Assembly (NCBI GenBank): GCA_043812975.1
Contig: JBDRLP010000065.1
Span: forward strand, 1-17,770
Direction: 5' to 3'
Source of the DNA: Candidatus Iainarchaeum sp.
Lineage (GTDB): Archaea > Iainarchaeota > Iainarchaeia > Iainarchaeales > Iainarchaeaceae
DNA length: 17,770 nucleotides
Within the stretch, counting starts at the first letter, position 1. The number at the start of each line of letters is the position of its first letter. Below the pieces are notes generated by a model, which saw only the letters and a list, made by a program, of their open reading frames with translations, was not told the DNA's origin and searched no databases. This document shows positions 1-17,770 of this stretch, piece after piece. A program made the position numbers and the translations under genes.

Positions 1-1
1 T

Positions 2-922
2 GATCGCTGGGGTGTTGACAGGCCTGATTTAAGATTTGGTTTGGAATTAGTTGATGTTACAGAAATAATCGGAAATGCAGGCTTCAATGCTTTCGAATCA
101 GTGGTTGCCGGCGGCGGAATAATAAAAGGAATAACTGTTCCTGGAAAAGCCGATTTCACAAGAAAAGAATTAACTGAATTAGAGGATTTTGTGAAAATTT
201 ACAAAGCAAAAGGAATTGCTTCATTAAAAATTGTTAATGGAAAAGTTGAAGGAGGAACTGCAAAGTTTTTCAACCCAAAAGCTCTGGATGAATTGAAAAA
301 CAAAATGAAAGCAAAAGACAATGACATAATGCTTCTTGTTGCTGATGCTCCGAAAATTGTGAATGATTCATTAGGTTATCTGAGAAACCATTTAGCAGAA
401 AAACTTGGTTTGATTAACAAAAAAGAATGGAATTTTTTATGGGTAAAAGATTTCCCGATGTTTGAATGGGATGAAGAAAATGGAAAATTAAAAGCAATGC
501 ATCATCCTTTTACTTCTCCAAAGAAAGAAGATTTTGGATTATTGGAAAAAGAACCTTTAAAAGTCAGAAGTAATTCTTATGATCTTGTCCTTAACGGATT
601 GGAAATTGGTGGCGGTTCTATCAGAATACACCAGTCAGATATTCAGGCTCTGGTTTTCAAAACATTAGGGCTAAGTGAAAAGGATGCCAAGGAAAAATTC
701 GGTTTTATGATGGATGCATTCAAATACGGCGCTCCTCCACATGGAGGAATAGCATTTGGCCTTGACAGGATGATAATGCTTCTGGTCGGAGCAACAAGTA
801 TTAGAGATGTTATTGCTTTCCCTAAGAACAAGGCAGCAATATCACTTATGGATGGTTCTCCAAGCGAAGTTGATGAAAAGTCGTTGAAGGAACTTAGCCT
901 GAAGCTTGACCTGAAAAAATGA
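2..922 (+). CDS. aspS: Aspartyl-tRNA synthetase, bacterial type (GAD insertion domain plus C-terminal extension); 5'-truncated by the window edge
   Basis: The frame is open from nt 2 (DRWGVDRPDLRFGLELVD, matching the bacterial RYGSDKPDLRF motif). It continues through a GAD domain, WVKDFPMFE, HHPFTSP, YDLVLNGLEIGGGSIRIH, motif 3 GAPPHGGIAFGLDR and IRDVIAFPK. Confidence 0.97.
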   Translation, partial: DRWGVDRPDLRFGLELVDVTEIIGNAGFNAFESVVAGGGIIKGITVPGKADFTRKELTELEDFVKIYKAKGIASLKIVNGKVEGGTAKFFNPKALDELKNKMKAKDNDIMLLVADAPKIVNDSLGYLRNHLAEKLGLINKKEWNFLWVKDFPMFEWDEENGKLKAMHHPFTSPKKEDFGLLEKEPLKVRSNSYDLVLNGLEIGGGSIRIHQSDIQALVFKTLGLSEKDAKEKFGFMMDAFKYGAPPHGGIAFGLDRMIMLLVGATSIRDVIAFPKNKAAISLMDGSPSEVDEKSLKELSLKLDLKK

Positions 923-1221
923 TTTTTATGCCTAAACCAAAGGTGGATGAAAAATTATTGCAAAGCGTGGCAAAAAACGCGCGTTTAAACCTCACAAAAG
1001 CAGAGGAAAAAAAGTTTCTTCCGCAGTTAAAAGAAGTACTTGATTTTTTTTCAAAACTTGATAAGCTTGATGTTTCAAAAGAAAAACCTTCATTCCAGCC
1101 TCTGGAAATGAAAAACGTTTTCAGAGAAGACAAAGTAGAAAAATGTCTTTCACAGGAAGAAGCTCTTTCAAATACTTCTCATAAAAAAGACGGTTATTTT
1201 AAGGGGCCGAAGGTGGTTTGA
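919..1221 (+). CDS. gatC: Asp/Glu-tRNA amidotransferase subunit C
   Basis: VAKNARLNL...FREDKV...EEALSN...DGYFKGPKV pattern; ATGA overlap with aspS (alternative start 928); lies directly upstream of gatA. Confidence 0.93.
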   Translation: MIFMPKPKVDEKLLQSVAKNARLNLTKAEEKKFLPQLKEVLDFFSKLDKLDVSKEKPSFQPLEMKNVFREDKVEKCLSQEEALSNTSHKKDGYFKGPKVV

Positions 1222-1312
1222 TGAGAATTATTGTTGCGAGCACAGCGAGCAAGTCCAACCTTGTGTTGGACGCGGTACCGCCGGTCGCAAACGGCGTGAA
1301 GGTGGTTTGATG
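1209..1312. mobile_element. GC-rich palindromic insert (1224-1297) flanked by an exact 15-bp direct repeat GAAGGTGGTTTGATG (1209-1223 and 1298-1312); MITE/REP-like
   Basis: The direct repeat is read directly. Internal hairpin GTCCAAC-cttgt-GTTGGAC (1253-1271), palindrome GCGGTACCGC (1272-1281), outer TTGCGA/TCGCAA (1234-1239/1285-1290). Mobility is inferred. Confidence 0.65.
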
Positions 1313-2725
1313 GTTTTAAGTGCTGTTGAATTTGTAAAGGAAGTTGCTTCAGGAAATATTTCAGTCATAGATCATACTTCTAAAATAATTAGTGAAATCG
1401 AGAAAAAAAATAAAGAGTTCCATCATTTCAATTATTTTGACAAGAAATTTGTGATTGATCAGGCTAACGATCTTGAAAAACAAATCAAGAAAGGAAAAAA
1501 AGGAAAACTTTTAGGAGTGCCAATTAGCGTAAAAGATTGTGTTTGTGTTAAAGGCCTGGAATCAAGAGCTGGTTCAAAAATTCTTTCCGGTTACAAACCT
1601 GTTTTTGATGCAACTGTAATAAAAAAAGCAAAAGAAGAAGGCGCAATTATTCTTGGAAAAACTTCACAGGATGAATTTGGTTTTGGAACTTTCTCAGTTA
1701 ACCATACAGCAGGAGAAATTCCTCTTAACCCTTTTGACAAGGAAAGAAGCTGTGGTGGTTCTTCCGGCGGAGCAGCTGGTTTTGCAGCTTTAACAAAAAA
1801 TACTCAAATTTCAATCGGGGAAAGTACTGGTGGTTCAATCGCATGCCCAGCATCTTTTTGCGGTGTTTCATCAATTACACCAACTTATGGTTTGGTTTCA
1901 AGATACGGGTTAATGGATTATGCAAGTTCTCTTGACAAGATTGGTGCAATTGGAAAAAATTCAAGTGATATTTCATTGCTCTTAGAGGTAATGAGTGGAA
2001 AGGATGAGAAGGACAGTACTTCTCTTGAGGGGATTTCATTTGGAAAAGAAAAAACTGAGGAATTAAAAATCGGTTTGCCAAAAGAACTTTTTGACGCAAT
2101 CGGAGACGAAAAAATAAAAGAAATTGTGAGAAAAAAAATCGATGAAGCAGAATCTTTTGGAGCAAAAATAGAAGAAATTTCTTTACCTTTAAACACAGAA
2201 TATGGTGTTGCTGTTTATTATCTGATTGCAATGGCTGAAGCATCAACAAACCTTGCAAAATACTGCGGTTTACGCTACGGTTTTGAAAAAAAGCTTGAAG
2301 GAAACTTCAATGAATATTTTTCAAGCGTAAGAAGTGAAGCTTTTGGAGAAGAAGCAAAAAGAAGAATTATGATAGGAACTTTTGCAAGAATGTCAGGTTT
2401 CAGAGATGCTTATTATTTGAAGGCCATGAGAGCCAGAACAAAAATGATTAATGAGTATAAGAGCATTTTCAAGAAAGTTGATGTACTTGCTTTGCCGGCA
2501 ATGCCTATTGTAGCTCCAAAATTCAAAGAAATTGAAAAGCTTTCTCCTTTACAGCATTATCAAATGGATCTTTGTACTGTAAGCCCTAACCTTTGCGGTT
2601 TGCCTCATGCAACTGTTAATGCAGGCTCCCTGAATGACATGCCTGTTGGTTTGATGATTATAGGAAACCACCTTGATGATTCAAGGGTTATTTCGGTTGC
2701 TTCACAATTGGAGGAATTAAAATGA
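1310..2725 (+). CDS. gatA: Asp/Glu-tRNA amidotransferase subunit A (amidase signature)
   Basis: GVPISVKD (catalytic Lys), GGSSGG, TGGSI..PASFCG, PTYGLVSRYGL, SSLDKIG, FGEEAKRRIMIGTF. ATG at 1310 follows an SD-like GAAGGTGG; the ORF track starts at TTG 1307. Confidence 0.96.
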   Translation: MVLSAVEFVKEVASGNISVIDHTSKIISEIEKKNKEFHHFNYFDKKFVIDQANDLEKQIKKGKKGKLLGVPISVKDCVCVKGLESRAGSKILSGYKPVFDATVIKKAKEEGAIILGKTSQDEFGFGTFSVNHTAGEIPLNPFDKERSCGGSSGGAAGFAALTKNTQISIGESTGGSIACPASFCGVSSITPTYGLVSRYGLMDYASSLDKIGAIGKNSSDISLLLEVMSGKDEKDSTSLEGISFGKEKTEELKIGLPKELFDAIGDEKIKEIVRKKIDEAESFGAKIEEISLPLNTEYGVAVYYLIAMAEASTNLAKYCGLRYGFEKKLEGNFNEYFSSVRSEAFGEEAKRRIMIGTFARMSGFRDAYYLKAMRARTKMINEYKSIFKKVDVLALPAMPIVAPKFKEIEKLSPLQHYQMDLCTVSPNLCGLPHATVNAGSLNDMPVGLMIIGNHLDDSRVISVASQLEELK

Positions 2726-2839
2726 ACGAAATAGAAGTAGCACAACCGTTGCGTCGGTTGGGTGCGCATACGGCCGCCCAATCTGCGATTGGGCATAAGT
2801 ATTTAATGGGGTTTTTTGCATGAACGAAATAGAAGTTGC
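2722..2839. mobile_element. GC-rich two-hairpin insert (2742-2819) flanked by a 20-bp direct repeat ATGAACGAAATAGAAGT(A/T)GC (2722-2741 and 2820-2839, 19/20 identical)
   Basis: The repeat duplicates the first codons of the downstream gene. Hairpins CAACCG/CGGTTG (2743-2760) and GCCCAATC-tgc-GATTGGGC (2776-2794). Mobility is inferred. Confidence 0.65.
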
Positions 2840-3590
2840 GAAAAAAGCCTGTGTTGAAGCGGGAAAAATCGCAATGAAATATTTTCAGGGTGATTTTACA
2901 ATTACAAAAAAAGGAAGAATTGATTTAGTTACTAATGCTGATGTTGAATGTGAACAAAAAATAAAAAAAGTAATTTTAGCTGAATATCCAACGCATTCTT
3001 TTTTAGGGGAAGAGGAAGGTTCTCAGGGAGAGAGTAAGAATGTATGGATAATAGATCCTATTGATGGTACAACAAACTTTGCTCACGGTATTGATAATTT
3101 CAGCCATTCAATTGCTTTAGTTAGGGATAATGAAATTATATGCGGTGCTGTTTTTGATCCTGTGAACAAAAAACTTTTTACTGCAGTTAAAGGAAAAGGA
3201 GCCGAATTAAACGGGAAAAAAATCAGTGTTTCAAAAACAGAAAAGCTGATTGACTCTGTAGTAATAACAGGTTTTCCTTATGATAATGGTGAAATAAGGG
3301 GAAAAGCTGTTGCATCAATTAGTTCATTGATTGGTAACTGTCAAGGCATAAGGCGTTTCGGTTCAGCTGCTTTGGATTTTTGTTTTGTTGCTCAGGGAAT
3401 TTGTGACGGTTTTTTTGAGTATTATCTTAAATCTTGGGATGTTGCAGCCGGCTTTCTTATTGCAAAAGAAGCAGGAGCAACAATTACTGACATTAATGGA
3501 AATGAAGCAACTATTAATTCAACGCATTTTATTGTAACCAATGGAAAAATCCACAAGGAGTTAAAAAGTCATTTGGAGGCTGTTTCATGA
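2820..3590 (+). CDS. suhB: Inositol monophosphatase family protein (SuhB-like)
   Basis: DLVTNAD..CE, GEE, WIIDPIDGTTNF, RRFGSAALD and WDVAAG motifs. Confidence 0.93.
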   Translation: MNEIEVAKKACVEAGKIAMKYFQGDFTITKKGRIDLVTNADVECEQKIKKVILAEYPTHSFLGEEEGSQGESKNVWIIDPIDGTTNFAHGIDNFSHSIALVRDNEIICGAVFDPVNKKLFTAVKGKGAELNGKKISVSKTEKLIDSVVITGFPYDNGEIRGKAVASISSLIGNCQGIRRFGSAALDFCFVAQGICDGFFEYYLKSWDVAAGFLIAKEAGATITDINGNEATINSTHFIVTNGKIHKELKSHLEAVS

Positions 3591-4120
3591 AAAATAATGT
3601 TGCAATTGTTCGTGGTTGGTATGTTAGACCTGATGGGAAGCTGGATTTTGCTTCGAGGAAAAGGCTTGAATTAGTAAAAGAACTTTTCAGGTCTGGAGAA
3701 TGTTCGAAGATAATTTTGTCAGGGGGGATAAACAGAGAGACGTTTTGGAAAGGAAAAAGAGTAACTGAATCAGCTATGATGCGCGATTATTTGGTTGATG
3801 AGTTGGGTGTTCCTTCTTCATTATTGTTGATTGAAAGCGATTCTCGTGGTTTAACAGAAAGTGCAATAAATACAAAAAAGATGGTTGATGAATTAGACCC
3901 GGAAAAAGTTTTTGTAATAACAAACGATTTTGCCGAGAAGGAAGTAAAAGATGCATTCTTGAGAAATGGATTTAGTGAATCTAAATTAGTAGTGAAAGGA
4001 GCAGATTTGCGTCCAAGAAGGTTAAGAGATGTTCCAGGTTCCTTTTTTTGGACCGCATATGGGAAAATAGTTGTTCCTTTTAAACGGAGCCGATGGGAAA
4101 GGAAACAAAGGATGAAATAA
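3587..4120 (+). CDS. DUF218/YdcF/ElyC-like protein, divergent
   Basis: RLE..ELF..G...IILSGG, TESAMMRDYL...GVP...LIESDSR..TESA and VITNDF resemble DUF218 motifs, but the usual H-x-x-RA is missing. ATGA overlap with the IMPase gene. Confidence 0.75.
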   Translation: MKNNVAIVRGWYVRPDGKLDFASRKRLELVKELFRSGECSKIILSGGINRETFWKGKRVTESAMMRDYLVDELGVPSSLLLIESDSRGLTESAINTKKMVDELDPEKVFVITNDFAEKEVKDAFLRNGFSESKLVVKGADLRPRRLRDVPGSFFWTAYGKIVVPFKRSRWERKQRMK

Positions 4121-4139
4121 TAAAAGGCGGTATTTTTTT

Positions 4140-6041
4140 ATGGTGAAAACAATAATTGGATTAGAAATCCATGTTCAACTCAATACTGATTCAAAATTAT
4201 TTTGTGGGTGCTCAACTTCTGGAAAAGTTGACCGTGGTTCCTGGGTTAAAGATTATCTTGAAAACAAAAAAATCAAGCATAAATTTGTGGAGCATGGAAT
4301 TGCTTTGAAATGTATTGATTCTGCTCAGGAAAGAAATTTGGAAACAAGGCAAATCGCAAAAGCACTGGTTTACATAGCCGATTCAGAACCAGTTTTGTTT
4401 ATTCTTCCCGGAAACAGGAAACTGGATTTAATGAAAGCTCAGAGTGAATTAAATGTAAAGGATTTCAGAATTGCTACTAAAGAAGAAGTTTTCAAGCACA
4501 CGAATTGTGTTGTTGGTTCAGTGCCGCCAACAATTGAAGGAATAAAAAAAGTTGTTGATAAAAAACTCTTGGAAAATAAAGTTATTTCTTTTAATGCAGG
4601 AAACCATTTTACAGGAATAATAATTGAAAAAGATAATTTCCTGAAATCAATTGACAATTATGAGATTTTGGATATTTCAGAGGATGAAACCATAGTTGAA
4701 CAACCAACTCCTCCAGAAAAGAAAAAAATTCCCGTTCTTAATGATGTTCCTAATACAAGAACCTGTGAAATATGTCTTGGCATGCCTGGCTCGAAACCAG
4801 TTTTGAACAAAAAAGCAGTTGATTATGCTTTAATGGTCGCAATGGCTCTGGGGTGTAAAATAAACAAGGAGTTTTTCTTTTCAAGAAAAACTTATTTTTA
4901 TCCTGATCTTGCAAAAGATTATCAGATTACTCAGTATGAAGTTCCTGTTGGTGAAAAAGGTGTTCTGGAAGTTGACGGGAAAAAAATCAGGATTACAAGG
5001 GTTCATTTAGAAGAAGATCCTGCTTCTCTTATTCATGAATCCGGAACAAAGCAAAGCAATTATTCTTTGATTGATTATAACAGGTCAGGAATTCCTTTAG
5101 TAGAAATAGTTACTGAACCTGATTTGGAAAGTCCTGAACAGGCAAGACACTTTTTGGATAAGATGTTAACAATTCTGAATTATTTAGGAGTTTATACTCA
5201 CGGAGAATCTGTTCTCAAGGCGGATTGTAATCTTTCAATTAAGGGTTCTGAAAGAGTTGAAGTGAAAAACGTTACCGGATTTAAAGCTGTTGAGCTGGCT
5301 TTGAAGGCAGAAGAACAAAGGCAGAGGGAAATGATTGAATCCAAGGAAAAAATTGTGCGGGAAACAAGAGGCTTTGATGCAGAAACAAATTCAACTTATT
5401 CAATGAGGAAAAAAGAAACAGAGGAAGATTATGGTTATATTGCAGATCCAGATTTGCCAAAAGTCGAATTAAATGACGAGTGGCTTGAAGAAATAAAAAA
5501 ATCCATGCCCGAATTGGCAGGGGAAAAAGCAAAGCGTTTTGTAAAAAAATTTGGTCTGAAGGAATATGATGCAAAAGTAATCGCTTCTGATAAAACTTTA
5601 TCCGAATTATTTGAAAAAGCAGCTAAAGTAGATCCTCAGTTAGCTGTCAGGTTTATTTCAAGAGAATTAATGGGTATTCTGAATTACAACAAATTAAAAA
5701 TTGAGAATACAAAAGTTAGTGCTGAGGGGGTAATTGGTTTAATTAAATTGGTTAAAGAGGGGAAAGTGAGTGATAAAAATGCAAAAGAATCCCTCATAAA
5801 GTATGTTATTGATGGTATTGAGCCGAAAGAGTTTTTGGAAAAAAATAATTTGCTTATTGATTCTTCTTCCGGCGATGTTGAAAAAATTGTTAAAGAAGTT
5901 GTTGTCGAAAACAAAACCGTTTTTGAAGAGTATAAGGCGGGCAATTCCAAGTCCCTGAATTTCCTCATTGGACAAGTAATGCGAAAAATGAAAGGAAAAG
6001 CCGACGCAAGGCAAGTGCAGAAAATTTTAGAAGAAAAATAA
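4140..6041 (+). CDS. gatB: Asp/Glu-tRNA amidotransferase subunit B with an inserted YbaK/ProX-like aminoacyl-tRNA deacylase domain
   Basis: IGLEIHVQLNT.SKLFCGC, PNT..CEICLGMPG, FSRKTYFYPDL, RVHLEED, DYNRSGIPLVEIVTEPD, RVEVKN, ETRGFD, MRKKE..EDYGY..DPDLP and a Yqey C-terminus (NFLIGQVMRKMKGKAD). At 633 aa it has ~170 extra residues between C24 and P204. Confidence 0.96.
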   Translation: MVKTIIGLEIHVQLNTDSKLFCGCSTSGKVDRGSWVKDYLENKKIKHKFVEHGIALKCIDSAQERNLETRQIAKALVYIADSEPVLFILPGNRKLDLMKAQSELNVKDFRIATKEEVFKHTNCVVGSVPPTIEGIKKVVDKKLLENKVISFNAGNHFTGIIIEKDNFLKSIDNYEILDISEDETIVEQPTPPEKKKIPVLNDVPNTRTCEICLGMPGSKPVLNKKAVDYALMVAMALGCKINKEFFFSRKTYFYPDLAKDYQITQYEVPVGEKGVLEVDGKKIRITRVHLEEDPASLIHESGTKQSNYSLIDYNRSGIPLVEIVTEPDLESPEQARHFLDKMLTILNYLGVYTHGESVLKADCNLSIKGSERVEVKNVTGFKAVELALKAEEQRQREMIESKEKIVRETRGFDAETNSTYSMRKKETEEDYGYIADPDLPKVELNDEWLEEIKKSMPELAGEKAKRFVKKFGLKEYDAKVIASDKTLSELFEKAAKVDPQLAVRFISRELMGILNYNKLKIENTKVSAEGVIGLIKLVKEGKVSDKNAKESLIKYVIDGIEPKEFLEKNNLLIDSSSGDVEKIVKEVVVENKTVFEEYKAGNSKSLNFLIGQVMRKMKGKADARQVQKILEEK

Positions 6042-6299
6042 TTTTGCATGTGTTTTATTGTTCTAAGAAAACGAACTGTGTTATTGCGATTTTTTTAAAA
6101 ACTTTTTGCAAAATTATAACTCGTTTTTGTTAAGAAGAAAATTTTTGAGAAAGATATTTAAAGCTAATGTTATTGTTTGAGTAGTAACACATTTTTTGAA
6201 AAAATTATCCCGATATTTCGCAATTTTTTTCAATAAAGTTTCAAATGTGTTCAAGATTAAATATTTTTGAATTTTTTAATTGGAAAGGAGGTTAGACAT

Positions 6300-6647
6300 A
6301 TGGCTGTCGTTTCGTTAGTAAATGGTTTTATTGCAAAGGTTGATTCATTGATTACAGGAAAGCTGTTTATGTATTTTATAATGTATTCATATTCAAAAAA
6401 CTTTTTTAATAATATAAAATTATTCGGAAAAATTCCGCTGTTTGCAAATGTTTTTGGATTTCTGGTTGCAGGATTAGTTTTTTCAGTAGTTTCTGTTTTA
6501 TCTTTGATAGAACCGTTTGCAGTTAGAATGATTAATTTTGTGAAAAACATTTTTTCAACAAAAATAAAACTGGAAATAACTATTGGTGCGCATCAAGTAG
6601 CAGTAATAACATTGACTTTGGTTTTGTTTCTTTGGGTAAGTTCTTAA
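6300..6647 (+). CDS. Hypothetical membrane protein (115 aa)
   Basis: ATG at 6300 with a strong SD-like AAGGAGGT upstream; several hydrophobic segments; no family recognised. Confidence 0.6.
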   Translation: MAVVSLVNGFIAKVDSLITGKLFMYFIMYSYSKNFFNNIKLFGKIPLFANVFGFLVAGLVFSVVSVLSLIEPFAVRMINFVKNIFSTKIKLEITIGAHQVAVITLTLVLFLWVSS

Positions 6648-6684
6648 TTTGCTTTTACCCAGAGTTCAAAAAACTCTTGAAAAA

Positions 6685-7281
6685 TTATAATAGGTCTTTT
6701 ACCTCTGGATTTTGCCTCAACTGTTCTCGTATCCTGAAAAAAGCAGTTCTCAAAGAATTAGGTGTTATGCCTTCCCTCTCTGCCAATTCTTTTACTGTGC
6801 TCCGGTTTCTTTCTAGTTCATAATAAGCCTCCCAGAATAATCTCTTGCTCCTTTCTGGTGCGTTTACTTTTTTCAGTGCCGTTTTCAGCACCAATGCAGT
6901 TTCTTTTCTTATGGCGGCCGTTCTCGGGTCAACAGGTTTTTCGGAAACAAGTCTTGAGGTAAGCACATCTTCTTGTTTTTTAATCCTTCTAATTGCAAAA
7001 GTCAAAAAGTTCTTCATTTGGTTTTCGAAAGCAGTTACAGCAAGAGGTTGAAATGGTCTTTCCCCATCATAGGATTCAAGAACAGGTATAATTTTTCTTC
7101 TGACGTATTCCTTGGCAGCATCATGGCTCAAACCAGCACTTTCGTAAATCTTTTTATACCCCCTGTATCGCTTCTTGACAATGCTTTCAAGAATTTTTTC
7201 GGTCCATTCATAAAGCTTTGCGTTTCTCTCTAACCTTTCTGCCCTTTCCATTACACTTTTTTCGACTCTTTTTTTTCGCAT
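6685..7281 (-). CDS. ECF/sigma-70-like protein (region 2-like and region 4 HTH)
   Basis: Region 2-like DAAKEYV...LESYDGERPF.PLAVTAFENQMKNFL. Region 4-like LKTALKKV...RSKRLFW.AYYE....TVKELAEREGITPNSLRTAFFRIREQLR. The 198-aa length is typical of ECF factors. Confidence 0.7.
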   Translation of the reverse strand: MRKKRVEKSVMERAERLERNAKLYEWTEKILESIVKKRYRGYKKIYESAGLSHDAAKEYVRRKIIPVLESYDGERPFQPLAVTAFENQMKNFLTFAIRRIKKQEDVLTSRLVSEKPVDPRTAAIRKETALVLKTALKKVNAPERSKRLFWEAYYELERNRSTVKELAEREGITPNSLRTAFFRIREQLRQNPEVKDLL

Positions 7282-7329
7282 TAAAAAAAAAGGTTTTCCG
7301 CATTATTAACCCTGTTGTTTTATGGTTTT

Positions 7330-7821
7330 TCAACCCGCCTCGATCCACAATTCAAAAAACTCTTTTTGATATTCGTCTGCTAGTTCGTGATCAAAAATAA
7401 AAACAATATTTTCAAAATTTTTTGTATTTGCATTATTGGTCCAGTTATAGGAGCCTGTAACAACAAGTTTATTATCAATAATCATGAACTTATTGTGCAT
7501 TGTTTTTCCGCTTGGCATGATTCTTATTTTGAGGTCATTTTCTAAAAATTCGTCTTTTGAATTTTTGGATGCTGATTGTAGATAATCAGTTATTACCCTG
7601 GGTCTCACTCCTTTGTTATTTGCACTTATCAAGGAAGATGCTATTTTTTCGGAAGTGAAGGAATAAATTGCAGCATCAATAGAGGTTTCAGCGTTATTTA
7701 TCGCTATTATTATGCGTTCTTCGCAATCTTCTTTTGGGCAGAAAAATGCCTGATTTTGCTGTTTTTCAGCACACCCAGAACACAACAACAATAATATCGT
7801 CAATAAACGAATTAATCCCAT
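7330..7821 (-). CDS. Phospholipase D-family (Nuc-like) nuclease with lipoprotein-type signal
   Basis: Single HKD motif MHNKFMIID...TGSYNWT...N.EN; SIDAAIYSFT; N-terminus MGLIRLLTILLLLCSGC (lipobox-like). Confidence 0.88.
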   Translation of the reverse strand: MGLIRLLTILLLLCSGCAEKQQNQAFFCPKEDCEERIIIAINNAETSIDAAIYSFTSEKIASSLISANNKGVRPRVITDYLQSASKNSKDEFLENDLKIRIMPSGKTMHNKFMIIDNKLVVTGSYNWTNNANTKNFENIVFIFDHELADEYQKEFFELWIEAG

Positions 7822-7869
7822 ATTATCTTTATTTTGGGAATTTCTTTTAAATTTTGCTCTTTAACGGGG

Positions 7870-7893
7870 GTTGTACCATATGGCATTTATAAA
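7870..7893 (+). repeat. Left copy of a 24-bp imperfect direct repeat GTTGTACCATA-nnn-CATTTATAAA
   Basis: 21/24 identical to 9620-9643; contains the TATA-like TTTATAAA. Confidence 0.8.
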
Positions 7894-8018
7894 CTGGCAT
7901 AGAATTTTGATGAAATACTGTCGGGAAACATCAAAAAATGTCGCGAAAGTGTCGGGTAAAATAAAATGAGCTAAAGTAAGTTATTGGTCTTTTATTTGAT
8001 TTCTCTGAGTGATTCAGT

Positions 8019-8762
8019 TTAAATTTTTTCTAATAAACTTGTCACTTGAATTTGGTTTATTTTCAGCATGCTGGCCGTCGTTGCGATTGTTCCATCTACT
8101 TTGAACCTTTTCAGTTTTTCCTTGAAGTTTTCAACCAGTTTTTTGTTTAATCCTATTGTTTTTATTTTTAGTCCCTGTTTTATTTCCCACAACTCTTGAT
8201 TGGTGTCCAGTAGCGCATAAAGGTCTGCGATATCTTTTGTACGTTTGAAGGCATCACTCCTGTTTGGAGTTGACTTTAACTTCATTTCCACTAAAATTTT
8301 TGCCGAAGGGATCATTATTTCTATTTCTTCAATTTTTATGAATTCTTTTTCTTTATCAAAAACTTTTTTGAGCAGTGGTTCAGGCATTGAGTGCCTCATT
8401 TTTGTCGAGGTTGCAATGTCGAAGTAAATGTAGGATAAATCATGTATTGGGTGCTTTTTGCTCTCTTCTGTACTCAGTTCTTTTTCTGTTTCACTGTGAA
8501 AGATTTTTACCCATCTGAATGTTGAGTGCCTGTGAAAACCCATGCTTTCCAGAGTATCCTCTAAGCTTTTCAGCTTTATTTTTTGCGGATTAAAGAAAAT
8601 GTCAATGTCCCTCGAACCCATGTGAACAACCTCTTTGTTCTTTAGTGTGTAGTGGACTGCCCATCCACCCATAAGACCAATATTTTTTCTTTCAGTTTCA
8701 TTGAGGTTCCTGAAAAACTTGAGTAAGAGTTCGTCAGATTTTTCAATCATAAGTTTTTCCAC
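8019..8762 (-). CDS. AbiEii-like nucleotidyltransferase (putative type IV toxin)
   Basis: LMGGWAV...GSRDIDIF (Pol-beta NTase motif), MKLKS...R...KDIADL; immediately downstream of an AbiEi-like gene. Confidence 0.75.
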   Translation of the reverse strand: MEKLMIEKSDELLLKFFRNLNETERKNIGLMGGWAVHYTLKNKEVVHMGSRDIDIFFNPQKIKLKSLEDTLESMGFHRHSTFRWVKIFHSETEKELSTEESKKHPIHDLSYIYFDIATSTKMRHSMPEPLLKKVFDKEKEFIKIEEIEIMIPSAKILVEMKLKSTPNRSDAFKRTKDIADLYALLDTNQELWEIKQGLKIKTIGLNKKLVENFKEKLKRFKVDGTIATTASMLKINQIQVTSLLEKI

Positions 8763-8768
8763 TGTAAA

Positions 8769-9479
8769 TCACAACCTGTTATCCAGCCAATTTTCCATAA
8801 TGTTTTTTGCCTGTTCTTCTGCTAAGCCGCCGGAACTGAAGAGGTCACTCAAAAGTATCGGTAAAGGAACAATTGAAAAATTTTTCACTTTTTCAGCCTG
8901 TCTAAAAAAAACTTCCTGCTTTGTTGGAATTAGGAAAAGATTTGCCTGCCCTTTCTCTGCTTTCAGGAATTTTTTAGAAAAAAGATATTTCTTCCATTTT
9001 GGTTCATCCCCCGGTCTGACGTAAATGTGAACCTGGTTTGTTTTTACATATGGTGTGAAAAGTTCACTGCCGGCAAAAATAGTGAATGCATAATCAAATC
9101 CTGCATTGCCAACTGTTTTCAATGTACTGGCGAAATCCAGCGGGGAATAATATTCAATTTTTTCAAGGCTGTTGAATGGTCTTGTAAAGGAAATAAGTTT
9201 CACCAAATCACTTGCCTTTGAAACAGTATACTCATTGGTTCTGGAATCTTTTAATAGAAAGCCACTTTTCTCTAGTTCCTTTACAAAAGAAAAGGTCGGA
9301 CCATAGGTAAGTGTCAGGTTTAAAATCTGAAAAGGTTTTTTTTGGCTGTAAATCCCTGTGTCTTTTCCACCAAGCATTTTTTCTGTTCCTTTCCTTAATT
9401 CAAGAATGTTCCACTTTTTTTCCTTGTTCTTTAGCATCCATAGGATTGAAATCAGGCGCTTATCAGTGAGCTTCAACAT
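8769..9479 (-). CDS. AbiEi-like antitoxin / winged-helix regulator
   Basis: N-terminal wHTH-like segment (TYGPTFSFVKELEKSGFL); C-terminal YAFT..AGSEL..PY....VHIYV and VP.PILLSDL...GG...EQA pattern; 6-bp gap to the NTase gene. Confidence 0.7.
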   Translation of the reverse strand: MLKLTDKRLISILWMLKNKEKKWNILELRKGTEKMLGGKDTGIYSQKKPFQILNLTLTYGPTFSFVKELEKSGFLLKDSRTNEYTVSKASDLVKLISFTRPFNSLEKIEYYSPLDFASTLKTVGNAGFDYAFTIFAGSELFTPYVKTNQVHIYVRPGDEPKWKKYLFSKKFLKAEKGQANLFLIPTKQEVFFRQAEKVKNFSIVPLPILLSDLFSSGGLAEEQAKNIMENWLDNRL

Positions 9480-9484
9480 GAATA

Positions 9485-9510
9485 TATTCGTTAAACGAAT
9501 ACTATATAAA
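9485..9510 (-). promoter_or_regulatory. Putative TATA box (TTTATATA on minus strand, 9503-9510) and operator palindrome TATTCGTT-A-AACGAATA (9485-9501) of the AbiE-like operon
   Basis: Perfect 8-bp inverted repeat between the TATA box and ATG 9479. Confidence 0.65.
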
Positions 9511-9619
9511 TATAATGAATAATGGTTTATTTTGTAGGTTGAAGATTCAAGTTTTTAGTAAATAGATAAAATCGCTAAATATAAGCGGATTCCGTGCATC
9601 ATTTAGACGGTTTATCAAT

Positions 9620-9643
9620 GTTGTACCATAATTCATTTATAAA
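9620..9643 (+). repeat. Right copy of the 24-bp imperfect direct repeat; probable promoter of the downstream + strand genes
   Basis: GTTGTACCATAattCATTTATAAA, 21/24 identical to 7870-7893. Confidence 0.8.
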
Positions 9644-9749
9644 TGCCCGACAGCAATGGTTATAGAAAAGGGTCAAAAATTGGTTTCGCCTCACGCCTCC
9701 TTTTATTTTCCCTTTTTCTTCTTTTTGTTTCTTTATTAAATTGATTTTT

Positions 9750-10145
9750 ATGAAAAAAATGTTAATTCCAGTATTCGTGGTTCTATTTTCCTTGAATGCT
9801 TTTGCCCAGGACTATTTATGGGATACATTAAGACCGGTTGCACAGTTTGCAGTTGATATTGATGTTCCTGTAAAAATGATTGTTTTTCTTTTGTCGATAG
9901 CAATTTTTTTCATTTCTGCTTTAGCTTATCAGAAATCAAAATCTAAAAGAATTCTGCTTGTCGCAATTGCATTTTTCTTCTTTGCATTTAAATGGTTGGT
10001 AAAATTATCAGACATTTTTTATTCTCCAGGTTACTTTTTGTCAGATTCCTCCGAGAATATTTTTGAGCTTATAATTTTGATTTCACTTTTAATTGCTCTT
10101 TTTTACAAAAAAAATGGAAATAAACTTTTCGCCAAAGGGAAGTAG
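9750..10145 (+). CDS. Hypothetical membrane protein (signal peptide plus ~3 TM), cotranscribed with a wHTH regulator
   Basis: MKKMLIPVFVVLFSLNAFA signal-like N-terminus; hydrophobic helices; 8-bp gap to the next gene. Confidence 0.8.
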   Translation: MKKMLIPVFVVLFSLNAFAQDYLWDTLRPVAQFAVDIDVPVKMIVFLLSIAIFFISALAYQKSKSKRILLVAIAFFFFAFKWLVKLSDIFYSPGYFLSDSSENIFELIILISLLIALFYKKNGNKLFAKGK

Positions 10146-10153
10146 GCGTTAAC

Positions 10154-10681
10154 ATGGATGTTTTAGAGCAGGCTCTTAAGTTAGATATAAGAAAAAAAAT
10201 ATACAATACTATTAAACGTAATCCGGGCTTGCATTTCAGGGAAATACAAAGAAGAGTCGGAATAGCTACTGGCGCATTACAATACCATTTAGATTGCTTG
10301 ATGAAAAAAAACTTATTGAAAACAGAAAGGGAAACAAAATTTCTTAGGTATTATCTGGTAAGACAGGATTTTGAGGAAACTTCTCTGATGGCTTTGCTTA
10401 GACAGGACTCAATGAGAAAAATAATTGTTTTCCTTATGCAGAGGCGCTTTGCTAACAATCAAACTATTTCAAAACAAGTAAACCTTAGCCCTTCAACTAC
10501 TTCCTGGCATTTAGAAAAACTTGTTGAAAGCAATGTTGTTGAAAAAAACCGAAGGGGAAGAAAAACGTATTTCAAACTAACTGATAAGGAAAAACTTGCT
10601 GAATTATTAGTTGGTTACAGAAGAAGTTTCTTGGATGAAGCAGTAAACAATTTCGTGGAAATCTGGGAAGAGAGTTTGTAA
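10154..10681 (+). CDS. Tandem winged-helix transcriptional regulator (ArsR-like, archaeal double-wHTH type)
   Basis: RKKIYNTIKRNPGLHFREIQRRVGIATGALQYHL and a second HTH ISKQVNLSPSTTSWHLEKLVE...RRGRKTYF. Confidence 0.88.
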   Translation: MDVLEQALKLDIRKKIYNTIKRNPGLHFREIQRRVGIATGALQYHLDCLMKKNLLKTERETKFLRYYLVRQDFEETSLMALLRQDSMRKIIVFLMQRRFANNQTISKQVNLSPSTTSWHLEKLVESNVVEKNRRGRKTYFKLTDKEKLAELLVGYRRSFLDEAVNNFVEIWEESL

Positions 10682-10712
10682 GTACTTAGTATTGAATTCT
10701 AAAAAAATTGAG

Positions 10713-10787
10713 TGGACACGGGCGGATTTGAACCGCCGATCTTTCCGTTATCAGCGGAATGCTCTAGCCAGACTGAGCCACGCGTCC
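10713..10787 (-). tRNA. tRNA-Ile (anticodon GAT), no intron, CCA not encoded
   Basis: The reverse complement folds as GGACGCG/CGTGTCC acceptor, GCTC/GAGC D-stem, TTCCG-CTGATAA-CGGAA anticodon arm, GGCGG-TTCAAAT-CCGCC T-arm, discriminator A. Confidence 0.97.
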
Positions 10788-10848
10788 ACAATTTACTTAG
10801 AAATTAGCTTGGAATACCTTTTTTAAACTATTTAAAGAATTGAATTTT

Positions 10849-11604
10849 CTATAATCTAGGGCTTCTTTTAGTATTTTCTGCATATATTTTGAGTAAATAG
10901 AATACTGCTACTATTGTGAATAAATATGAAATTACGATTCCTACTATTGGGATTATTGATAGTACTGTGAGTATTGCTGTTGCAGCCAGCATAACAAAAA
11001 TAGCTGCAAGATTGAATATATAATTTTTTACTCCAAATGCAATTGATTTTTGAACTGCTCTTATTCCTCCGGTTTTTTCAAGAACTACTATAGGAGTTGC
11101 ATTAATGAAAAGAGGGGAAACAAAGAATAAAATCACTATTGCAATGAATATTCCGATTAATAATCCAATTTCCTGAAACAATAAGTAAGCCGGAATAAGT
11201 ATTATTGCCATTAGTAAAAAAACAAGAAGGGTGGTTACTATAGTCACTACTATTGTTGGTATTAATCTTTGTCTTATCGCGTGACTTATTTCATCAAAAT
11301 TATAATTTCCTGAAATTTCAATCTGTGAAAATCCTTTATAAGAAAAAATATTCAAAATTGCCTGAACTAGTAGTAATATTATTAATCCAATAATTCCTGC
11401 TAAAAATATTACTATAATCGAAACCCACATGTTATTTATTGCTGCTAAAAAAGCAATCCCTAGAGCACCTACGAGTATTACTATTGCAGCTACTCCTAAA
11501 CCAATTAACATTGCTGCACCAAAATAAATGATTCCTAAAATTAGTGCTGGTTTTTTAATTGCAAGAGAAAATGATTGCATGAACAATTCTACTGGATTAG
11601 GCAT
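10849..11604 (-). CDS. Polytopic membrane protein of unknown function
   Basis: 251 aa with ~6 hydrophobic helices; PIVVLEKTGGIRAVQKS motif typical of small archaeal membrane families. Confidence 0.82.
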   Translation of the reverse strand: MPNPVELFMQSFSLAIKKPALILGIIYFGAAMLIGLGVAAIVILVGALGIAFLAAINNMWVSIIVIFLAGIIGLIILLLVQAILNIFSYKGFSQIEISGNYNFDEISHAIRQRLIPTIVVTIVTTLLVFLLMAIILIPAYLLFQEIGLLIGIFIAIVILFFVSPLFINATPIVVLEKTGGIRAVQKSIAFGVKNYIFNLAAIFVMLAATAILTVLSIIPIVGIVISYLFTIVAVFYLLKIYAENTKRSPRL

Positions 11605-11693
11605 GCAAATATAATCTTAGATTTCCGTTAAAAACCTTTCTTTGGTTGTGAAGCATACTTTTTATAGCTTTGCGAGTAAAATTCATTCTGAAG

Positions 11694-11858
11694 CACTAGC
11701 CCCGTCGTGTAGCGACCTTTTCTTTAGGAAAGAACCTTGCAGAATTAGAAATTCTGCGAGGCCTCCCAGAACGAGAGTTCTGGAAGGAAGCTCGACTAAA
11801 AGAAAAGTGGTTTAAGGGCTTAAATCATAGTTAATTACACTAGCCCCGTCGTCTAGTG
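11694..11858 (+). repeat. Duplicated 5' end of tRNA-Gln (11694-11714 vs 11838-11858, 19/21 identical) separated by a multi-hairpin insert
   Basis: CACTAGCCCCGTCGT is exact at 11694-11708 and 11838-11852. The insert contains CTTTTCTTTAG...CTAAAAGAAAAG, CTTGCAGAATT-aga-AATTCTGCGAG and CCAGAAC-gaga-GTTCTGG. Confidence 0.8.
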
Positions 11859-11989
11859 GCCAAGGATACAGGCCTTTGGAGTAGCCTTTTTCTTTCTTGA
11901 GAAGAAAGAAAAACCCTAGGGAAAAAGAAAGAACTAGGGTCTGGGTACGAAGCCAGCCTGGGACCAGAGTTCGAATCTCTGCGGGGCTA
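11842..11989 (+). tRNA. tRNA-Gln (anticodon TTG) with a 75-nt intron at the canonical 37/38 position (11880-11954)
   Basis: AGCCCCG/CGGGGCT acceptor (A1-U72, archaeal Gln hallmark); CAGGC-CTTTGG|intron|A-GCCTG; T-arm CAGAG-TTCGAAT-CTCTG; bulge-helix-bulge with GGA bulge, CTTT/GAAG helix and CCA bulge. Confidence 0.95.
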
Positions 11990-12038
11990 ATCAGTACTTT
12001 TGGAAAGTCTTTTATATTTCGAACCTTTATTTTTTATT

Positions 12039-12662
12039 ATGCCTGTGAAAACTGCAATTTTTCGTGAAAATCAGAGGAAATTACAAACTGCAAGAAAAAC
12101 ACGTGGTTTTAGTTTGTTTCCTGATTTGCAGACAGATTCAACTAGAAAATTTGAACGTGACCTTGCTAGAAATGCCATAAGACCCGCTCTTGGAACACAC
12201 CTTGAAAGACCAAGCCCTGTACAGAAAAGGCAAAGCCAGAGGGAAGTATTCAGACATATGGTTAGGAGGCTGGGCCATGAGCTTAAGGGTGAAATTTCCA
12301 AAAAAGAAATAGCTGCTCTTAATGAACTCTCAATATTATTTTCCAAACATATAAATGTCAGGCACCAGCCTGAAGAACTCATGCGACGAACTTTTAAGCT
12401 GAGCCGTCGTGAGATAGAACTTGCTAATATGTTAAGTGAAACAACCGTAAAAAAACTTGATTCTTTAATTGACCGTCTGGAATACTTTTTTCCTACTAGA
12501 GAAGAAAGACTTGATAGGGGAGTAATAGAAGGAAATATATTTGATGAAGATCTTGACACAAAATTTTTTTCAAAACAACTTCGATTTAGAATTGCCCATG
12601 ATTTATGGCATTCTGGCGTGAGTTTTAAAATGATGCTGGATTCTGCAAGAAAACCACGCTAA
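12039..12662 (+). CDS. Hypothetical Arg-rich soluble protein
   Basis: 207-aa ORF from ATG 12039 with a TATA-like TTTATAT ~25 nt upstream; no family recognised. Confidence 0.7.
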   Translation: MPVKTAIFRENQRKLQTARKTRGFSLFPDLQTDSTRKFERDLARNAIRPALGTHLERPSPVQKRQSQREVFRHMVRRLGHELKGEISKKEIAALNELSILFSKHINVRHQPEELMRRTFKLSRREIELANMLSETTVKKLDSLIDRLEYFFPTREERLDRGVIEGNIFDEDLDTKFFSKQLRFRIAHDLWHSGVSFKMMLDSARKPR

Positions 12663-12718
12663 AAAGAAAAGTGTCAGCTTCGCTGAAAGCTTTACCAAAA
12701 GAAAAAGCACTAATTTTA

Positions 12719-13066
12719 TTAGTACAAAAATCCAGTAATGATTTCAGCAAGCGGCGGGCCTAAAATAAAGCCATTCACAAAACCAAAAACCAGATTTATT
12801 ATTGAAAAAACCAACGATACTTTTGTTGGCACTCCAAAAAGCGCTTTAATGAGAAAGAAAACTGCAGCTAGAACTGCCAGAAAAAAGAAAGCAGTGTTTG
12901 GCAAAAAATACGCAAAAATCAGAACAAAAAGAGTGTTTCCTCCAACTAAAAGAATTGAGTTCTTTAAAGACGCGTTTGGAGTTTCTGTTACTTTTAAGAG
13001 AAATGTTGTCAAAATTATTCCGAGAATCATTCCGGAAATCAAAGGCAGGTCATAGTAAATCGCCAT
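12719..13066 (-). CDS. Small 4-TM membrane protein (paralog 1)
   Basis: 115 aa, hydrophobic; alignable by eye with 13103-13450 and 15875-16219. Confidence 0.8.
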   Translation of the reverse strand: MAIYYDLPLISGMILGIILTTFLLKVTETPNASLKNSILLVGGNTLFVLIFAYFLPNTAFFFLAVLAAVFFLIKALFGVPTKVSLVFSIINLVFGFVNGFILGPPLAEIITGFLY

Positions 13067-13102
13067 ACTAAATACTGCTCAAACTAAGTTATATAAGTTT
13101 TC

Positions 13103-13450
13103 TCAGAACAAAAACCCAATAAGAGAGTCAGATGCAAAATCTACCAATACTAATGATAATACTGTTTTGAAAATCATGCTCAAAATCAATAAAATTAGTG
13201 TTTTATCTAACGGAGCACTATAAATCACTTTTATCAAAAAATAATAACTAACCAAATACAATGCGATTGAAATAAACGAAGCTGGTGGAAAAAAAGAATC
13301 AAAAAAAGCAGTAAGAATAACAAGCCCGCTTATGAAAATAAAACCATTTTTCAAATTCGCATTTGGAAAACCTGCTGATTTAGTAATGAAAGTAATCAAC
13401 CCGGTTCCTAAAATAATTGCTGTTATATATGGGATTAGGTAATAAACCAT
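13103..13450 (-). CDS. Small 4-TM membrane protein (paralog 2)
   Basis: 115 aa; shares YY..P, ILG, PNA.LKN and FLIK with paralog 1; 6 bp downstream of ychF. Confidence 0.8.
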   Translation of the reverse strand: MVYYLIPYITAIILGTGLITFITKSAGFPNANLKNGFIFISGLVILTAFFDSFFPPASFISIALYLVSYYFLIKVIYSAPLDKTLILLILSMIFKTVLSLVLVDFASDSLIGFLF

Positions 13451-13456
13451 TTTTGA

Positions 13457-14650: not shown

Positions 14651-14702
14651 TGAATAATTGAGTTTGAAAACAATTAAATACCTTTAATCCCAATTCTTGT
14701 TT

Positions 14703-14900
14703 ATGGGTTTTTTGGATAAACTGACCGGAAAAAAAGAAGAAGAAAAAGAAGAAAAAAAAGCTCCTGAAATCCCTCAGGGAAAGTATTCTGAGGAATGTTC
14801 GGTTTGCGGCAACCTCGGAACTGAAAAAAAGTGGATGGGGCAGTATTTTCATAAGGCTTGCCTCAGAAAAATGAAGAAGCAAGCAAAAAAAATGCTGTGA
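14703..14900 (+). CDS. Small Zn-finger-like protein (C-x2-C...H-x2-C), 65 aa
   Basis: MGFLDKL...ECSVCG...KWMGQYFHKACLRK; fills the gap divergent from ychF. Confidence 0.75.
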   Translation: MGFLDKLTGKKEEEKEEKKAPEIPQGKYSEECSVCGNLGTEKKWMGQYFHKACLRKMKKQAKKML

Positions 14901-14902
14901 AC

Positions 14903-15631: not shown

Positions 15632-15645
15632 ATATAGACTCCGTT

Positions 15646-15689
15646 CAACTATATATTTAATTGTTGTGGTACTGCGCCACAACTAGATA
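15646..15689. promoter_or_regulatory. Divergent promoter region with candidate operator motifs
   Basis: CAACTATATA (15646-15655) and CAACTAGATA (15680-15689) direct repeat; inverted repeat GTTGTGG/CCACAAC (15663-15683); TATA-like TTAAATATAT on the minus strand. Confidence 0.45.
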
Positions 15690-15717
15690 TTATCTTGTAT
15701 TTTGGTGCAATTATTTC

Positions 15718-15873
15718 ATGTACACGTGCTCGTATTGTGGAATGAAGTTTCACATGGCCGGCCCTCCACAGGATGTGCATCGGCATATTGGTATTCACAC
15801 AGGCATCTATGCAAAAATGATTTATTCAAATGCAAAGTTTATGTCAGCTTCCCAAAAGATACGTGAGTGGTGA
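15718..15873 (+). CDS. C2H2-type zinc-finger microprotein (51 aa)
   Basis: MYTCSYCGMKF...VHRHIGIHTG; its stop lies within the GGTGA SD of the next gene. Confidence 0.65.
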   Translation: MYTCSYCGMKFHMAGPPQDVHRHIGIHTGIYAKMIYSNAKFMSASQKIREW

Positions 15874-15874
15874 T

Positions 15875-16560: not shown

Positions 16561-16620
16561 TGATTAAAATATGTTAAAAAGCTTTAAATATTGTTACTGG
16601 TAGAATTCTGTTTGATTTAA

Positions 16621-17769: not shown

Positions 17770-17770
17770 A

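Follow-up and report, generated by a model that had tools for sequence, protein, structure and literature searches.

Inserts at the gatC/gatA and gatA/IMPase junctions

Two short inserts and the family of small hairpin-bearing elements to which they are assigned are the subject of this study. They lie in a DNA stretch of 17,770 nucleotides (nt) from Candidatus Iainarchaeum sp. (GCA_043812975.1, contig JBDRLP010000065.1, positions 1 to 17,770), and this whole stretch is called the window below. The source genome is a 68-contig metagenome-assembled genome that is 94.5% complete. The window opens inside an aspartyl-tRNA synthetase gene, which is followed on the forward strand, according to Pfam, by gatC, gatA (amidase), an inositol-monophosphatase-family (IMPase) gene, a DUF218 gene and gatB. 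Insert 1 separates gatC from gatA and insert 2 separates gatA from the IMPase-family gene, and at each junction an open reading frame (ORF), here called a relay mini-ORF, runs through the insert from a duplicated start codon to the true one.

919–1221, + strand: gatC (Pfam GatC, E 1.6e-17); its stop TGA (1219–1221) lies within the first repeat copy
1209–1223, no strand: upstream copy of the insert 1 target duplication, with Shine-Dalgarno-like GAAGGTGG, the gatC stop and the duplicated ATG (1221)
1221–1310, + strand: relay mini-ORF 1, 29 codons plus TGA (1308–1310) overlapping the gatA ATG at 1310 (TGATG), the stop being at -2 of the true start
1224–1297, - strand: insert 1, an element copy of 74 nt that runs antisense to the operon (covariance model, H1 and linker motif, fold, BLAST to other copies)
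1298–1312, no strand: downstream copy of the insert 1 target duplication, with the Shine-Dalgarno-like motif, the relay-ORF TGA and the true gatA ATG (1310)
1310–2725, + strand: gatA (Pfam Amidase, E 1.3e-106; tblastn to relatives); its stop TGA (2723–2725) overlaps the duplicated ATG at 2722
2722–2738, no strand: upstream copy of the insert 2 target duplication, with the ATGA overlap and the first 17 nt of the IMPase-family gene
2722–2823, + strand: relay mini-ORF 2, 33 codons plus TGA (2821–2823) overlapping the ATG at 2820 (ATGA), the stop being at +1
2739–2819, + strand: insert 2, an 81-nt element copy in sense with the operon (covariance model, fold)
2820–2836, no strand: downstream copy of the insert 2 target duplication, with the true ATG (2820) and the relay-ORF TGA (2821–2823)
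2820–3590, + strand: IMPase-family gene, 3' of insert 2 (Pfam Inositol_P, E 9.1e-67)

The repeats flanking both inserts are perfect. The first, GAAGGTGGTTTGATG, has 15 nt (15/15) and is found at 1209–1223 and 1298–1312 with a period of 89, and the second, ATGAACGAAATAGAAGT, has 17 nt (17/17; 19/20 when extended) and is found at 2722–2738 and 2820–2836 with a period of 98. The native Shine-Dalgarno sequence GGAGG (2709–2713) lies just 5' of the upstream copy at insert 2, outside the duplication. When a repeat finder anchored at the hairpin end was applied to 300 random genome positions, none reached a score of 12 (maximum 11), while the two inserts score 15 and 17; flanking repeats of such quality are therefore not due to chance. 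On the - strand, insert 1 consists of a first hairpin (H1, 1279–1296), a linker, a second hairpin (H2, 1253–1271) and a tail module (1224–1252). Insert 2 is made up of H1 (2743–2760), a linker, H2 (2776–2794) and an A/T-rich tail with a GGGG-T6-GC end.

Several features had been noted in a preliminary description made from the sequence alone: GC-rich inserts in an AT-rich genome, duplications that span the stop/start overlap with periods of 89 and 98, a frame without in-frame stops that leads from the first ATG to a TGA on the true start, and the lack of a transposase. All of these are borne out here. The GC content in 60-nt windows rises to 0.60 in insert 1 and 0.57 in insert 2, against 0.22–0.42 in the neighbouring sequence and 35.1% in the genome, the duplications are those of 15 and 17 nt given above, and the frames are the ORFs of 29 and 33 codons. 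No match to transposase, integrase or reverse-transcriptase Pfam families was obtained among the 24 window ORFs scanned. Rfam gave no family at the inserts, either over the whole window at gathering thresholds or over 1150–2900 at E<=10.

A family of hairpin-bearing elements

BLAST searches of the inserts against the genome gave many partial matches. A covariance model (R1) was built from 20 seed copies outside the window and comprises H1 (a 6-bp stem with a TTGCGT-like loop), the linker, H2 and a variable tail. With filters off, it matched insert 2 on the + strand (2737–2808, 48.5 bits, E 5.6e-17) and insert 1 on the - strand (1236–1302, 10.8 bits, E 0.004), and no R1 match was found on the + strand of insert 1 at E<=10. 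Independently, a motif script placed H1 and the linker of insert 1 on the - strand at 1279–1296. The closest insert-1-like copies, C12:19216-19292 and C1:34231-34295, score 30.7 and 22.9 bits with R1 in the matching orientation. Insert 1 itself was not detected by nhmmer profiles and was found, weakly, only by the covariance model with filters off. Because of the H1 and linker motif and the scores of these related copies, insert 1 is assigned to the hairpin family as a divergent member that is inverted relative to insert 2. The preliminary description had aligned a shared core of the two inserts on the same strand (1256–1283 and 2743–2776). Those letters are present, and they can be put down to the hairpin-linker-hairpin symmetry of the element, but the homology according to R1 lies in opposite orientations.

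R1 matches occur at 55 places in the genome (E<=0.1), in 20 of 23 genomes of the family (E<=1e-5) and, patchily, in 25 of 121 sampled genomes of the order (E<=1e-6). An exact-pattern scan of the genome contigs found 8 stretches in 4 records, the pattern being too narrow to show the distribution. The earlier proposal that the inserts are copies from a set of small non-autonomous elements thus holds well beyond the window. The elements are small (about 50–135 nt), GC-rich, hairpin-bearing, non-autonomous insertion elements that are spread throughout the family and patchy across the order. The preliminary description had held the family to be undescribed, and no account of it was found in the literature searched.

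The case for a conserved structure depends on covariation, as the fold energies of both inserts are only modestly below those of shuffled sequences (z -1.7 to -2.0). Among the 20 seeds, the six pairs of H1 are never broken, and compensatory changes are found in 9 of 13 pairs. In 87 copies from relatives, with the alignment fitted to R1, 90.4% of the paired cells can pair, compared with 72.2% after shuffling (reached in 0 of 500 shuffles) and at most 45.2% with slid partners, and 193 double changes were counted where 62 were expected. The paired columns contain 49 G-T/T-G and 46 A-C/C-A combinations and thus no excess of wobble pairs; the pairing constraint looks strand-symmetric, as for palindromes acting in DNA rather than RNA transcribed from one strand.

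Relative to co-directional host genes, 25 copies are antisense and 7 sense (P=0.002), the window containing one of each. Most copies at junctions are antisense with H1 adjoining the ribosome-binding site, and the peptides read from antisense copies share a common frame of the element. No terminal inverted repeats were found, the inverted repeats present being the internal hairpins. The H1 end begins with CCAC or CAAC in 25 of 50 duplication-bearing copies, and the opposite end has no recurrent terminus.

Both copies in the window are single. Tandem arrays of element copies were seen only at some loci of relatives, i.e., L079, L095 and L115 in G003, G007 and G016, with periods of 87, 51 and 105 nt, and the 'flanking repeat' at these loci contains element sequence.

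Target duplications, empty sites and occupied sites

The 60 copies considered in the source genome comprise the 55 R1 matches and 5 insert-1-like copies. With the H1-anchored finder, flanking repeats scoring >=12 were found at 22 of these 60 copies, compared with 0 of 300 random places. Their lengths range from 12 to 47 nt in the 22 scored copies and reach 45 nt in relatives when tandem arrays are set aside. The flanking repeats are specific to each locus, and the inserted sequence is related between loci.

Empty sites in relatives, which the preliminary description had named as a check on insertion, were found for both inserts. The gatC/gatA junction is single-copy, i.e., empty, in all 11 loci of relatives. 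At the gatA/IMPase junction of 11 relatives, 5 are empty (L004, L006, L007, L011, G005), 5 are occupied (L003, L008, L009, L010, L012) and 1 has a 20-nt spacer. The occupied sites carry elements and duplications that differ between lineages. In G004 the repeat has 16 nt, from the ribosome-binding site to ATGAA, with a period of 83, while G007 and G011, which belong to one genus, have repeats of 26 and 24 nt that begin at the start codon, with periods of 104 and 101; G015 has an insert-1-like tail that is ended by the contig end. This junction has been hit independently at least three times, insert 2 included. The spacer is that of the closest relative, G003 (L125, C46, reverse strand), and reads ATG ATT TTG AGT TGT TTT ATA TGA, a 7-codon ORF that links the ATGA of gatA with that of the IMPase gene. 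Possibly it is what remains of a deleted element, with the relay frame kept.

Reading frame of the insertions

Duplication-bearing copies were classed according to the features that the duplication spans once the pre-insertion sequence is reconstructed, with genes predicted by a simple caller of our own. The census includes 22 of the 60 copies in the source genome and 33 of 86 profile matches in 80 loci of 19 relatives. The repeat periods are distributed as follows.

Duplication with stop and start (n=12): 3n, 1 (an in-frame fusion); 3n+1, 0; 3n+2, 11
Duplication with start only (n=6): 3n, 1; 3n+1, 1; 3n+2, 4
All other insertion classes (n=37): 3n, 18; 3n+1, 6; 3n+2, 13

When the duplication covers both stop and start, 11 of 12 periods are thus 3n+2 (binomial P=4.7e-5), or 9 of 10 without the two window cases (P=3.6e-4), compared with 13 of 37 elsewhere (Fisher P=7.6e-4), and the periods of these stop/start insertions span 74 to 131. 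Insertions classed as intragenic (n=15), several of which are mis-classed gene ends, show 6, 3 and 6 for 3n, 3n+1 and 3n+2.

Of the 18 start-containing insertions, 16 have a relay ORF whose end falls within -17 to +5 of the true start; one of the other two is fused and one has an early stop. In 10 of the 18, both window inserts among them, the relay ORF ends exactly on the overlapping stop (+1 or -2). The insert portion of the relay frame, read from stop offsets, is stop-free in 17 of 18 cases (null, 180 of 330 frames; P=2.9e-4). At the gatA/IMPase junction, the copies in G004, G007 and G011, which represent two insertion events, are all 3n+2 with the relay stop at +1, and the orthologous copies of G007 and G011 differ in length by exactly 3 nt. 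The rule of a 3n+2 period with an open relay frame, suggested by two cases in the preliminary description, is therefore seen in 9 of 10 other stop/start insertions and in the three gatA/IMPase copies of relatives.

A 3n+2 bias with the stop on the true start is what selection for termination-reinitiation predicts. Coupling by termination-reinitiation is almost lost in Haloferax and E. coli reporters when genes lie about 20 nt apart (PMC10666635). Judged from these periods and stop positions, the frame bias indicates selection for a relay ORF, as proposed for MIRUs (interspersed repetitive units of mycobacteria).

Proposed mechanism and alternative explanations

Insertion duplicates a long and variable stretch of the target (12–47 nt in the copies scored), with the H1 end precise and the other end variable. 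At a tight junction such a long duplication would rebuild both gene ends, with the upstream stop retained in the first copy and the downstream start, often together with the ribosome-binding site, in the second. The duplicated start, a decoy, would open the relay ORF, which would be read through the stop-poor element. Only with a period of 3n+2 would the relay ORF terminate at the duplicated stop codon, the one overlapping the true start (ATGA or TGATG), and copies of this kind would persist. Ribosomes leaving gatC (or gatA) would re-initiate twice and in this way reach gatA (or the IMPase gene). The duplication at insert 1 includes a ribosome-binding motif, and both of its starts therefore have one, while that at insert 2 does not; the only 5' signal of the true start there is a GGGG run from the element tail, 7 nt upstream, so that this start should depend more on the relay. 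From the frame statistics we infer that the relay ORFs are probably translated and preserve termination-reinitiation coupling, that the frame is set by selection rather than by the chemistry of insertion, and that the inserts are probably non-polar. Taken as a whole, this explanation, i.e., a hairpin family whose survivors at junctions have 3n+2 periods and pass ribosomes on through a mini-ORF, is considered probable, though some way from certain.

Several points weigh against it. Insert 1 is a weak match to the model (10.8 bits) and is not among the whole-genome R1 matches at E<=0.1. About 55% of all frames through the GC-rich inserts are open by chance, so that openness alone is weak evidence. 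The gene starts come from a simple script, and some classes are mis-assigned (e.g., C41:42347 and C32:15141). Not every copy in a related genome is an independent case, and 5 of the 6 'start only' cases lie at one ABCE1-like gene, where a sixth copy, in the source genome, falls below the repeat-score cut-off. Oligo-T tracts can stop archaeal RNA polymerase, and the T6 run in the tail of insert 2 (2813–2818, sense strand), 2 nt before the IMPase start, could act as a transcription stop and make this insert polar at the RNA level. Moreover, no enzyme that would make the duplications was identified in the searches of this genome and family described below.

The elements might instead be cis-acting modules that serve the host, for instance hairpins that stabilise or process mRNA, attenuators or small RNA genes, with the mini-ORFs being incidental. 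Conserved hairpins with compensatory changes, the bias of 25 antisense to 7 sense copies (P=0.002) and an H1 that in most junction copies borders on the ribosome-binding site would fit such a role. However, presence at orthologous sites varies among congeneric genomes, occupied sites carry different elements, the flanking duplications are marks of insertion, no Rfam family matches the inserts, and the 49 wobble pairs against 46 A-C/C-A combinations suggest a strand-symmetric constraint. This explanation also leaves the frame bias unaccounted for, and it is regarded as improbable. Even less credit is given to the possibility that the frame pattern is due to chance or is a by-product of preferred element or duplication lengths, the mini-ORFs having no effect. 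The two window cases alone would share a frame with a chance of about 1/9, and the GC-rich inserts are open in about 55% of frames. On the other hand, 11 of 12 stop/start insertions are 3n+2 across periods from 74 to 131 when the same family elsewhere shows 13 of 37, the orthologous gatA/IMPase copies differ by 3 nt, and the 20-nt spacer of G003 is itself a 7-codon ORF from ATGA to ATGA.

The possibility that there were no insertions at all, but local slippage duplications or artefacts of metagenome assembly, is the most remote. The assembly has 68 contigs, and repeats often break or mis-join such assemblies; however, this architecture is repeated at dozens of loci and is present in 20 of the 23 family genomes, with inserts related between loci and flanking repeats specific to each locus. 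In addition, a 174-nt contig from a public run equals 2586–2759 without a difference and passes through the first repeat, which is weak evidence as it reaches only 21 nt into insert 2. No contig bridging an insert or an empty site was found in four public runs, which offer low-depth contigs and short identical pieces, and none of the public runs listed with this stretch is of RNA.

Aimed insertion versus survival

The preliminary description had further held that the elements target translation-initiation junctions. On that view the inserting machinery would recognise stop/start junctions or start codons, and the junction bias would stem from the mechanism as well as from survival. When insertion was simulated as uniform, using duplication lengths as observed, the expected non-intragenic shares were 71% intergenic and 2.9% stop and start. 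In the source genome (non-intragenic n=17), 9 insertions are of the stop and start class (P=3e-10) and 2 are intergenic (P=6e-7), and among perfect, presumably young repeats (n=10) the figures are 6 (P=1e-7) and 1. The relatives show much less of this: stop and start insertions number 3 of the non-intragenic 23 (P=0.03) and 1 of 9 with perfect repeats (P=0.23), and intergenic ones number 8, some being tandem arrays, and 5, respectively. In favour of aiming, at least three lineages show independent hits on the gatA/IMPase junction, and in sense copies the tail-side boundary often coincides with the A of the ATG, even though the duplication reaches 17–40 nt into the gene. The start of the ABCE1-like gene (Fer4 and two ABC_tran domains) also carries a sense copy in 6 genomes (L129 66-175, which is G000:C27:107965-108074, and L055, L059, L074, L077 and L119), with duplications that differ in length (18–40 nt) and varying periods; one explanation is a hot spot, the other an old insertion that was later remodelled. 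Recurrence at these two places speaks for hot spots, though unequal tolerance is another possible cause.

Against aiming, no sequence motif was found at either duplication boundary (50 sites), and copies also occur elsewhere, i.e., at 3' ends, tRNA ends, gene interiors and spacers. Duplications at tight junctions are near the minimum that spans the ribosome-binding site to the stop, as survival alone predicts. The census is itself biased, as repeats under selection remain detectable longer, and in a compact genome the DNA between genes is not neutral. Much of the junction enrichment is explained by purifying selection acting together with long duplications through which gene ends are rebuilt. 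Aimed insertion is considered possible, but somewhat less probable than its contrary. Targeting is not established, with strong enrichment in the source genome, weak enrichment in relatives and copies elsewhere too, and the tabulated preference for starts (9 of 17 in the source genome, 3 of 23 in relatives, 1 of 9 among perfect repeats there) does not carry the claim. Overall, the earlier interpretation stands as to the family, the empty sites and the frame rule, but not as to junction targeting and the same-strand alignment of the inserts.

A bolder proposal would combine these aspects: a new kind of prokaryotic mobile DNA with one defined hairpin end, without inverted termini and with long target duplications of variable length, moved by an enzyme other than the recognised transposases, reverse transcriptases or Cas1, aimed at stop/start overlaps or start codons and carrying its own relay cassette (an open frame and a ribosome-binding-like G-run). 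It is regarded as rather unlikely. If true, such an element could, without polarity, settle in those tightly coupled operons that are most essential to minimal archaeal genomes.

Comparison with known elements

MIRUs are tandem units of 46–101 bp that are not known to have a GC-rich two-hairpin architecture or long flanking target duplications. The likeness lies in the logic of the relay ORF, and a site at the start codon with a stop overlapping the host start was found for both window inserts. According to a review, MIRUs insert at start codons in such a way that the ORF within the repeat is coupled at -4 to the host gene, and expression is little disturbed (PMC12548453). MIRUs are bacterial, whereas the elements studied here are archaeal, structured and single-copy per site with duplications of 12–47 nt, the comparison being one of descriptions only.

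Rickettsia palindromic elements (RPEs) are described as palindromic repeats that tolerate translation and lie in frame inside protein genes (PMC10969869). This tolerance recalls the hairpin family, in which same-orientation copies share a peptide frame and one copy, C1:13696-13761, lies inside a called gene and adds 54 nt in frame, as read from the sequence. However, RPEs are about 150 bp long, bacterial and mostly intragenic, whereas both window inserts lie between genes. The RPE description consulted mentions neither relay ORFs at stop/start overlaps nor duplications that are long and variable.

REP/BIME sequences and others derived from IS200/IS605 resemble the elements in being GC-rich hairpins outside genes, with ends that are asymmetric and lack terminal inverted repeats. 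The Y1 HUH chemistry behind them is not known to leave a target duplication. Unlike these types, the elements here have target duplications (22 of 60) and no Y1 partner in the genome.

MITEs, the miniature transposable elements with inverted repeats, are similar in being small, multi-copy, non-coding, non-autonomous and flanked by target duplications. A survey defines them by terminal inverted repeats of at least 10–15 bp and duplications of 2–10 bp, and a high density is reported in some DPANN genomes (PMC11602168). A classical MITE is rejected, as the elements have no terminal inverted repeats, duplications of 12–47 nt and no parent transposon with the same ends among the DDE_Tnp_1, IS200-like and TnpB loci compared. 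With one precise end, one variable end and variable duplications, they fit neither classical MITEs nor HUH elements. The sole prokaryotic precedent found for long variable duplications is IS1634 and IS1549 of the IS4 family, for which direct repeats of 8–514 bp on insertion, and no mechanistic model, are reported (PMC2266710). These are described as autonomous insertion sequences that encode large DDE transposases (PMC2266710). In contrast, no DDE gene is linked to the elements here, and element-rich relatives such as G003 have no DDE gene.

Two other origins were considered and rejected. A SINE-like retroelement would fit one defined end and variable duplications, but no PF00078 match was found in the 23 family genomes. 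For a casposon-derived element, no PF01867 match was found in the source genome, and the duplication length is not fixed.

Search for a mobiliser

The preliminary description had suggested HUH/TnpA, Cas1-like and reverse-transcriptase genes as candidate mobilisers, and none of them was found in the source genome, where Cas1 (PF01867), RVT_1, Y1_Tnp (PF01797) and Resolvase (serine recombinase) had no match. The genome contains one TnpB, two IS5-like DDE_Tnp_1 and one rve gene, none of which is linked to the elements.

G000:C9:1157–2374, - strand: stand-alone TnpB-like gene, no hairpin element at its end
C20:12650–13177 and C3:23821–24324: two diverged IS5-like DDE transposase genes with their own GGCTCTGTAGAAATC-like inverted repeats, unrelated to the hairpin elements
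C47, a 2.2-kb contig: rve integrase gene

Among the 23 family genomes, matches over the cut-off were found for TnpB in 3, DDE_Tnp_1 in 12, rve in 3, Y1_Tnp in 8 and RVT_1 (PF00078) in 0, compared with 20 genomes for the element, and none of these five tracks it. G003 has 21 R1 matches, yet none of the five. When 15 Y1 loci were scanned with R1 with filters off, one match was obtained, 275 nt outside the insertion sequence. The end hairpins of IS200-like elements in relatives differ from those of the hairpin family.

Other features of the window

A third duplication-flanked insert, from another repeat family, and three further protein-coding regions were recorded.

2–922: aspartyl-tRNA synthetase fragment with a GAD domain (Pfam)
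4140–6041: GatB gene with an N-terminal tRNA_edit (YbaK-like) aminoacyl-tRNA editing domain fused to GatB_N and GatB_Yqey
8019–9479, - strand: two adjacent ORFs with a weak NTP_transf_5 match (below cut-off) and an AbiEi_2 antitoxin-like match
11694–11856, + strand: third insert, a 125-nt hairpin insert (11713–11837) with a 19-nt repeat (18/19)
11842–11989: tRNA gene with an intron of ~78 nt (43.3 bits)

The GAD domain is typical of aspartyl-tRNA synthetases of the bacterial type and would be unexpected in an archaeon. From its domain matches, the ORF pair at 8019–9479 may be a type IV toxin-antitoxin or abortive-infection pair. The repeat of the third insert consists of 4 nt and the first 15 nt of the intron-bearing tRNA gene, with the upstream copy at 11694–11712, and its repeat family recurs at C17:7947-7995. 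Neither ARAGORN nor the Rfam pass at gathering thresholds detected the tRNA gene.

Significance

Taken with the failure to find a mobiliser, the length and variability of the duplications point to a mechanism of insertion without a model, as for IS1634 and IS1549. For the annotation of metagenome-assembled genomes, inserts of this kind cause spurious small ORFs, shifted start calls and contig breaks. If the relay reading is true, the elements would be a natural experiment on translational coupling in archaea, in which dozens of independent insertions would reveal the junction geometry that is tolerated, i.e., a period of 3n+2 with the stop on the overlapping codon. This geometry would agree with the loss of coupling in reporters at a gene distance of about 20 nt. 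The elements would also carry the MIRU idea over from mycobacteria to archaea whose genomes are very small, and would show how selfish DNA can persist where non-coding space is almost nil.

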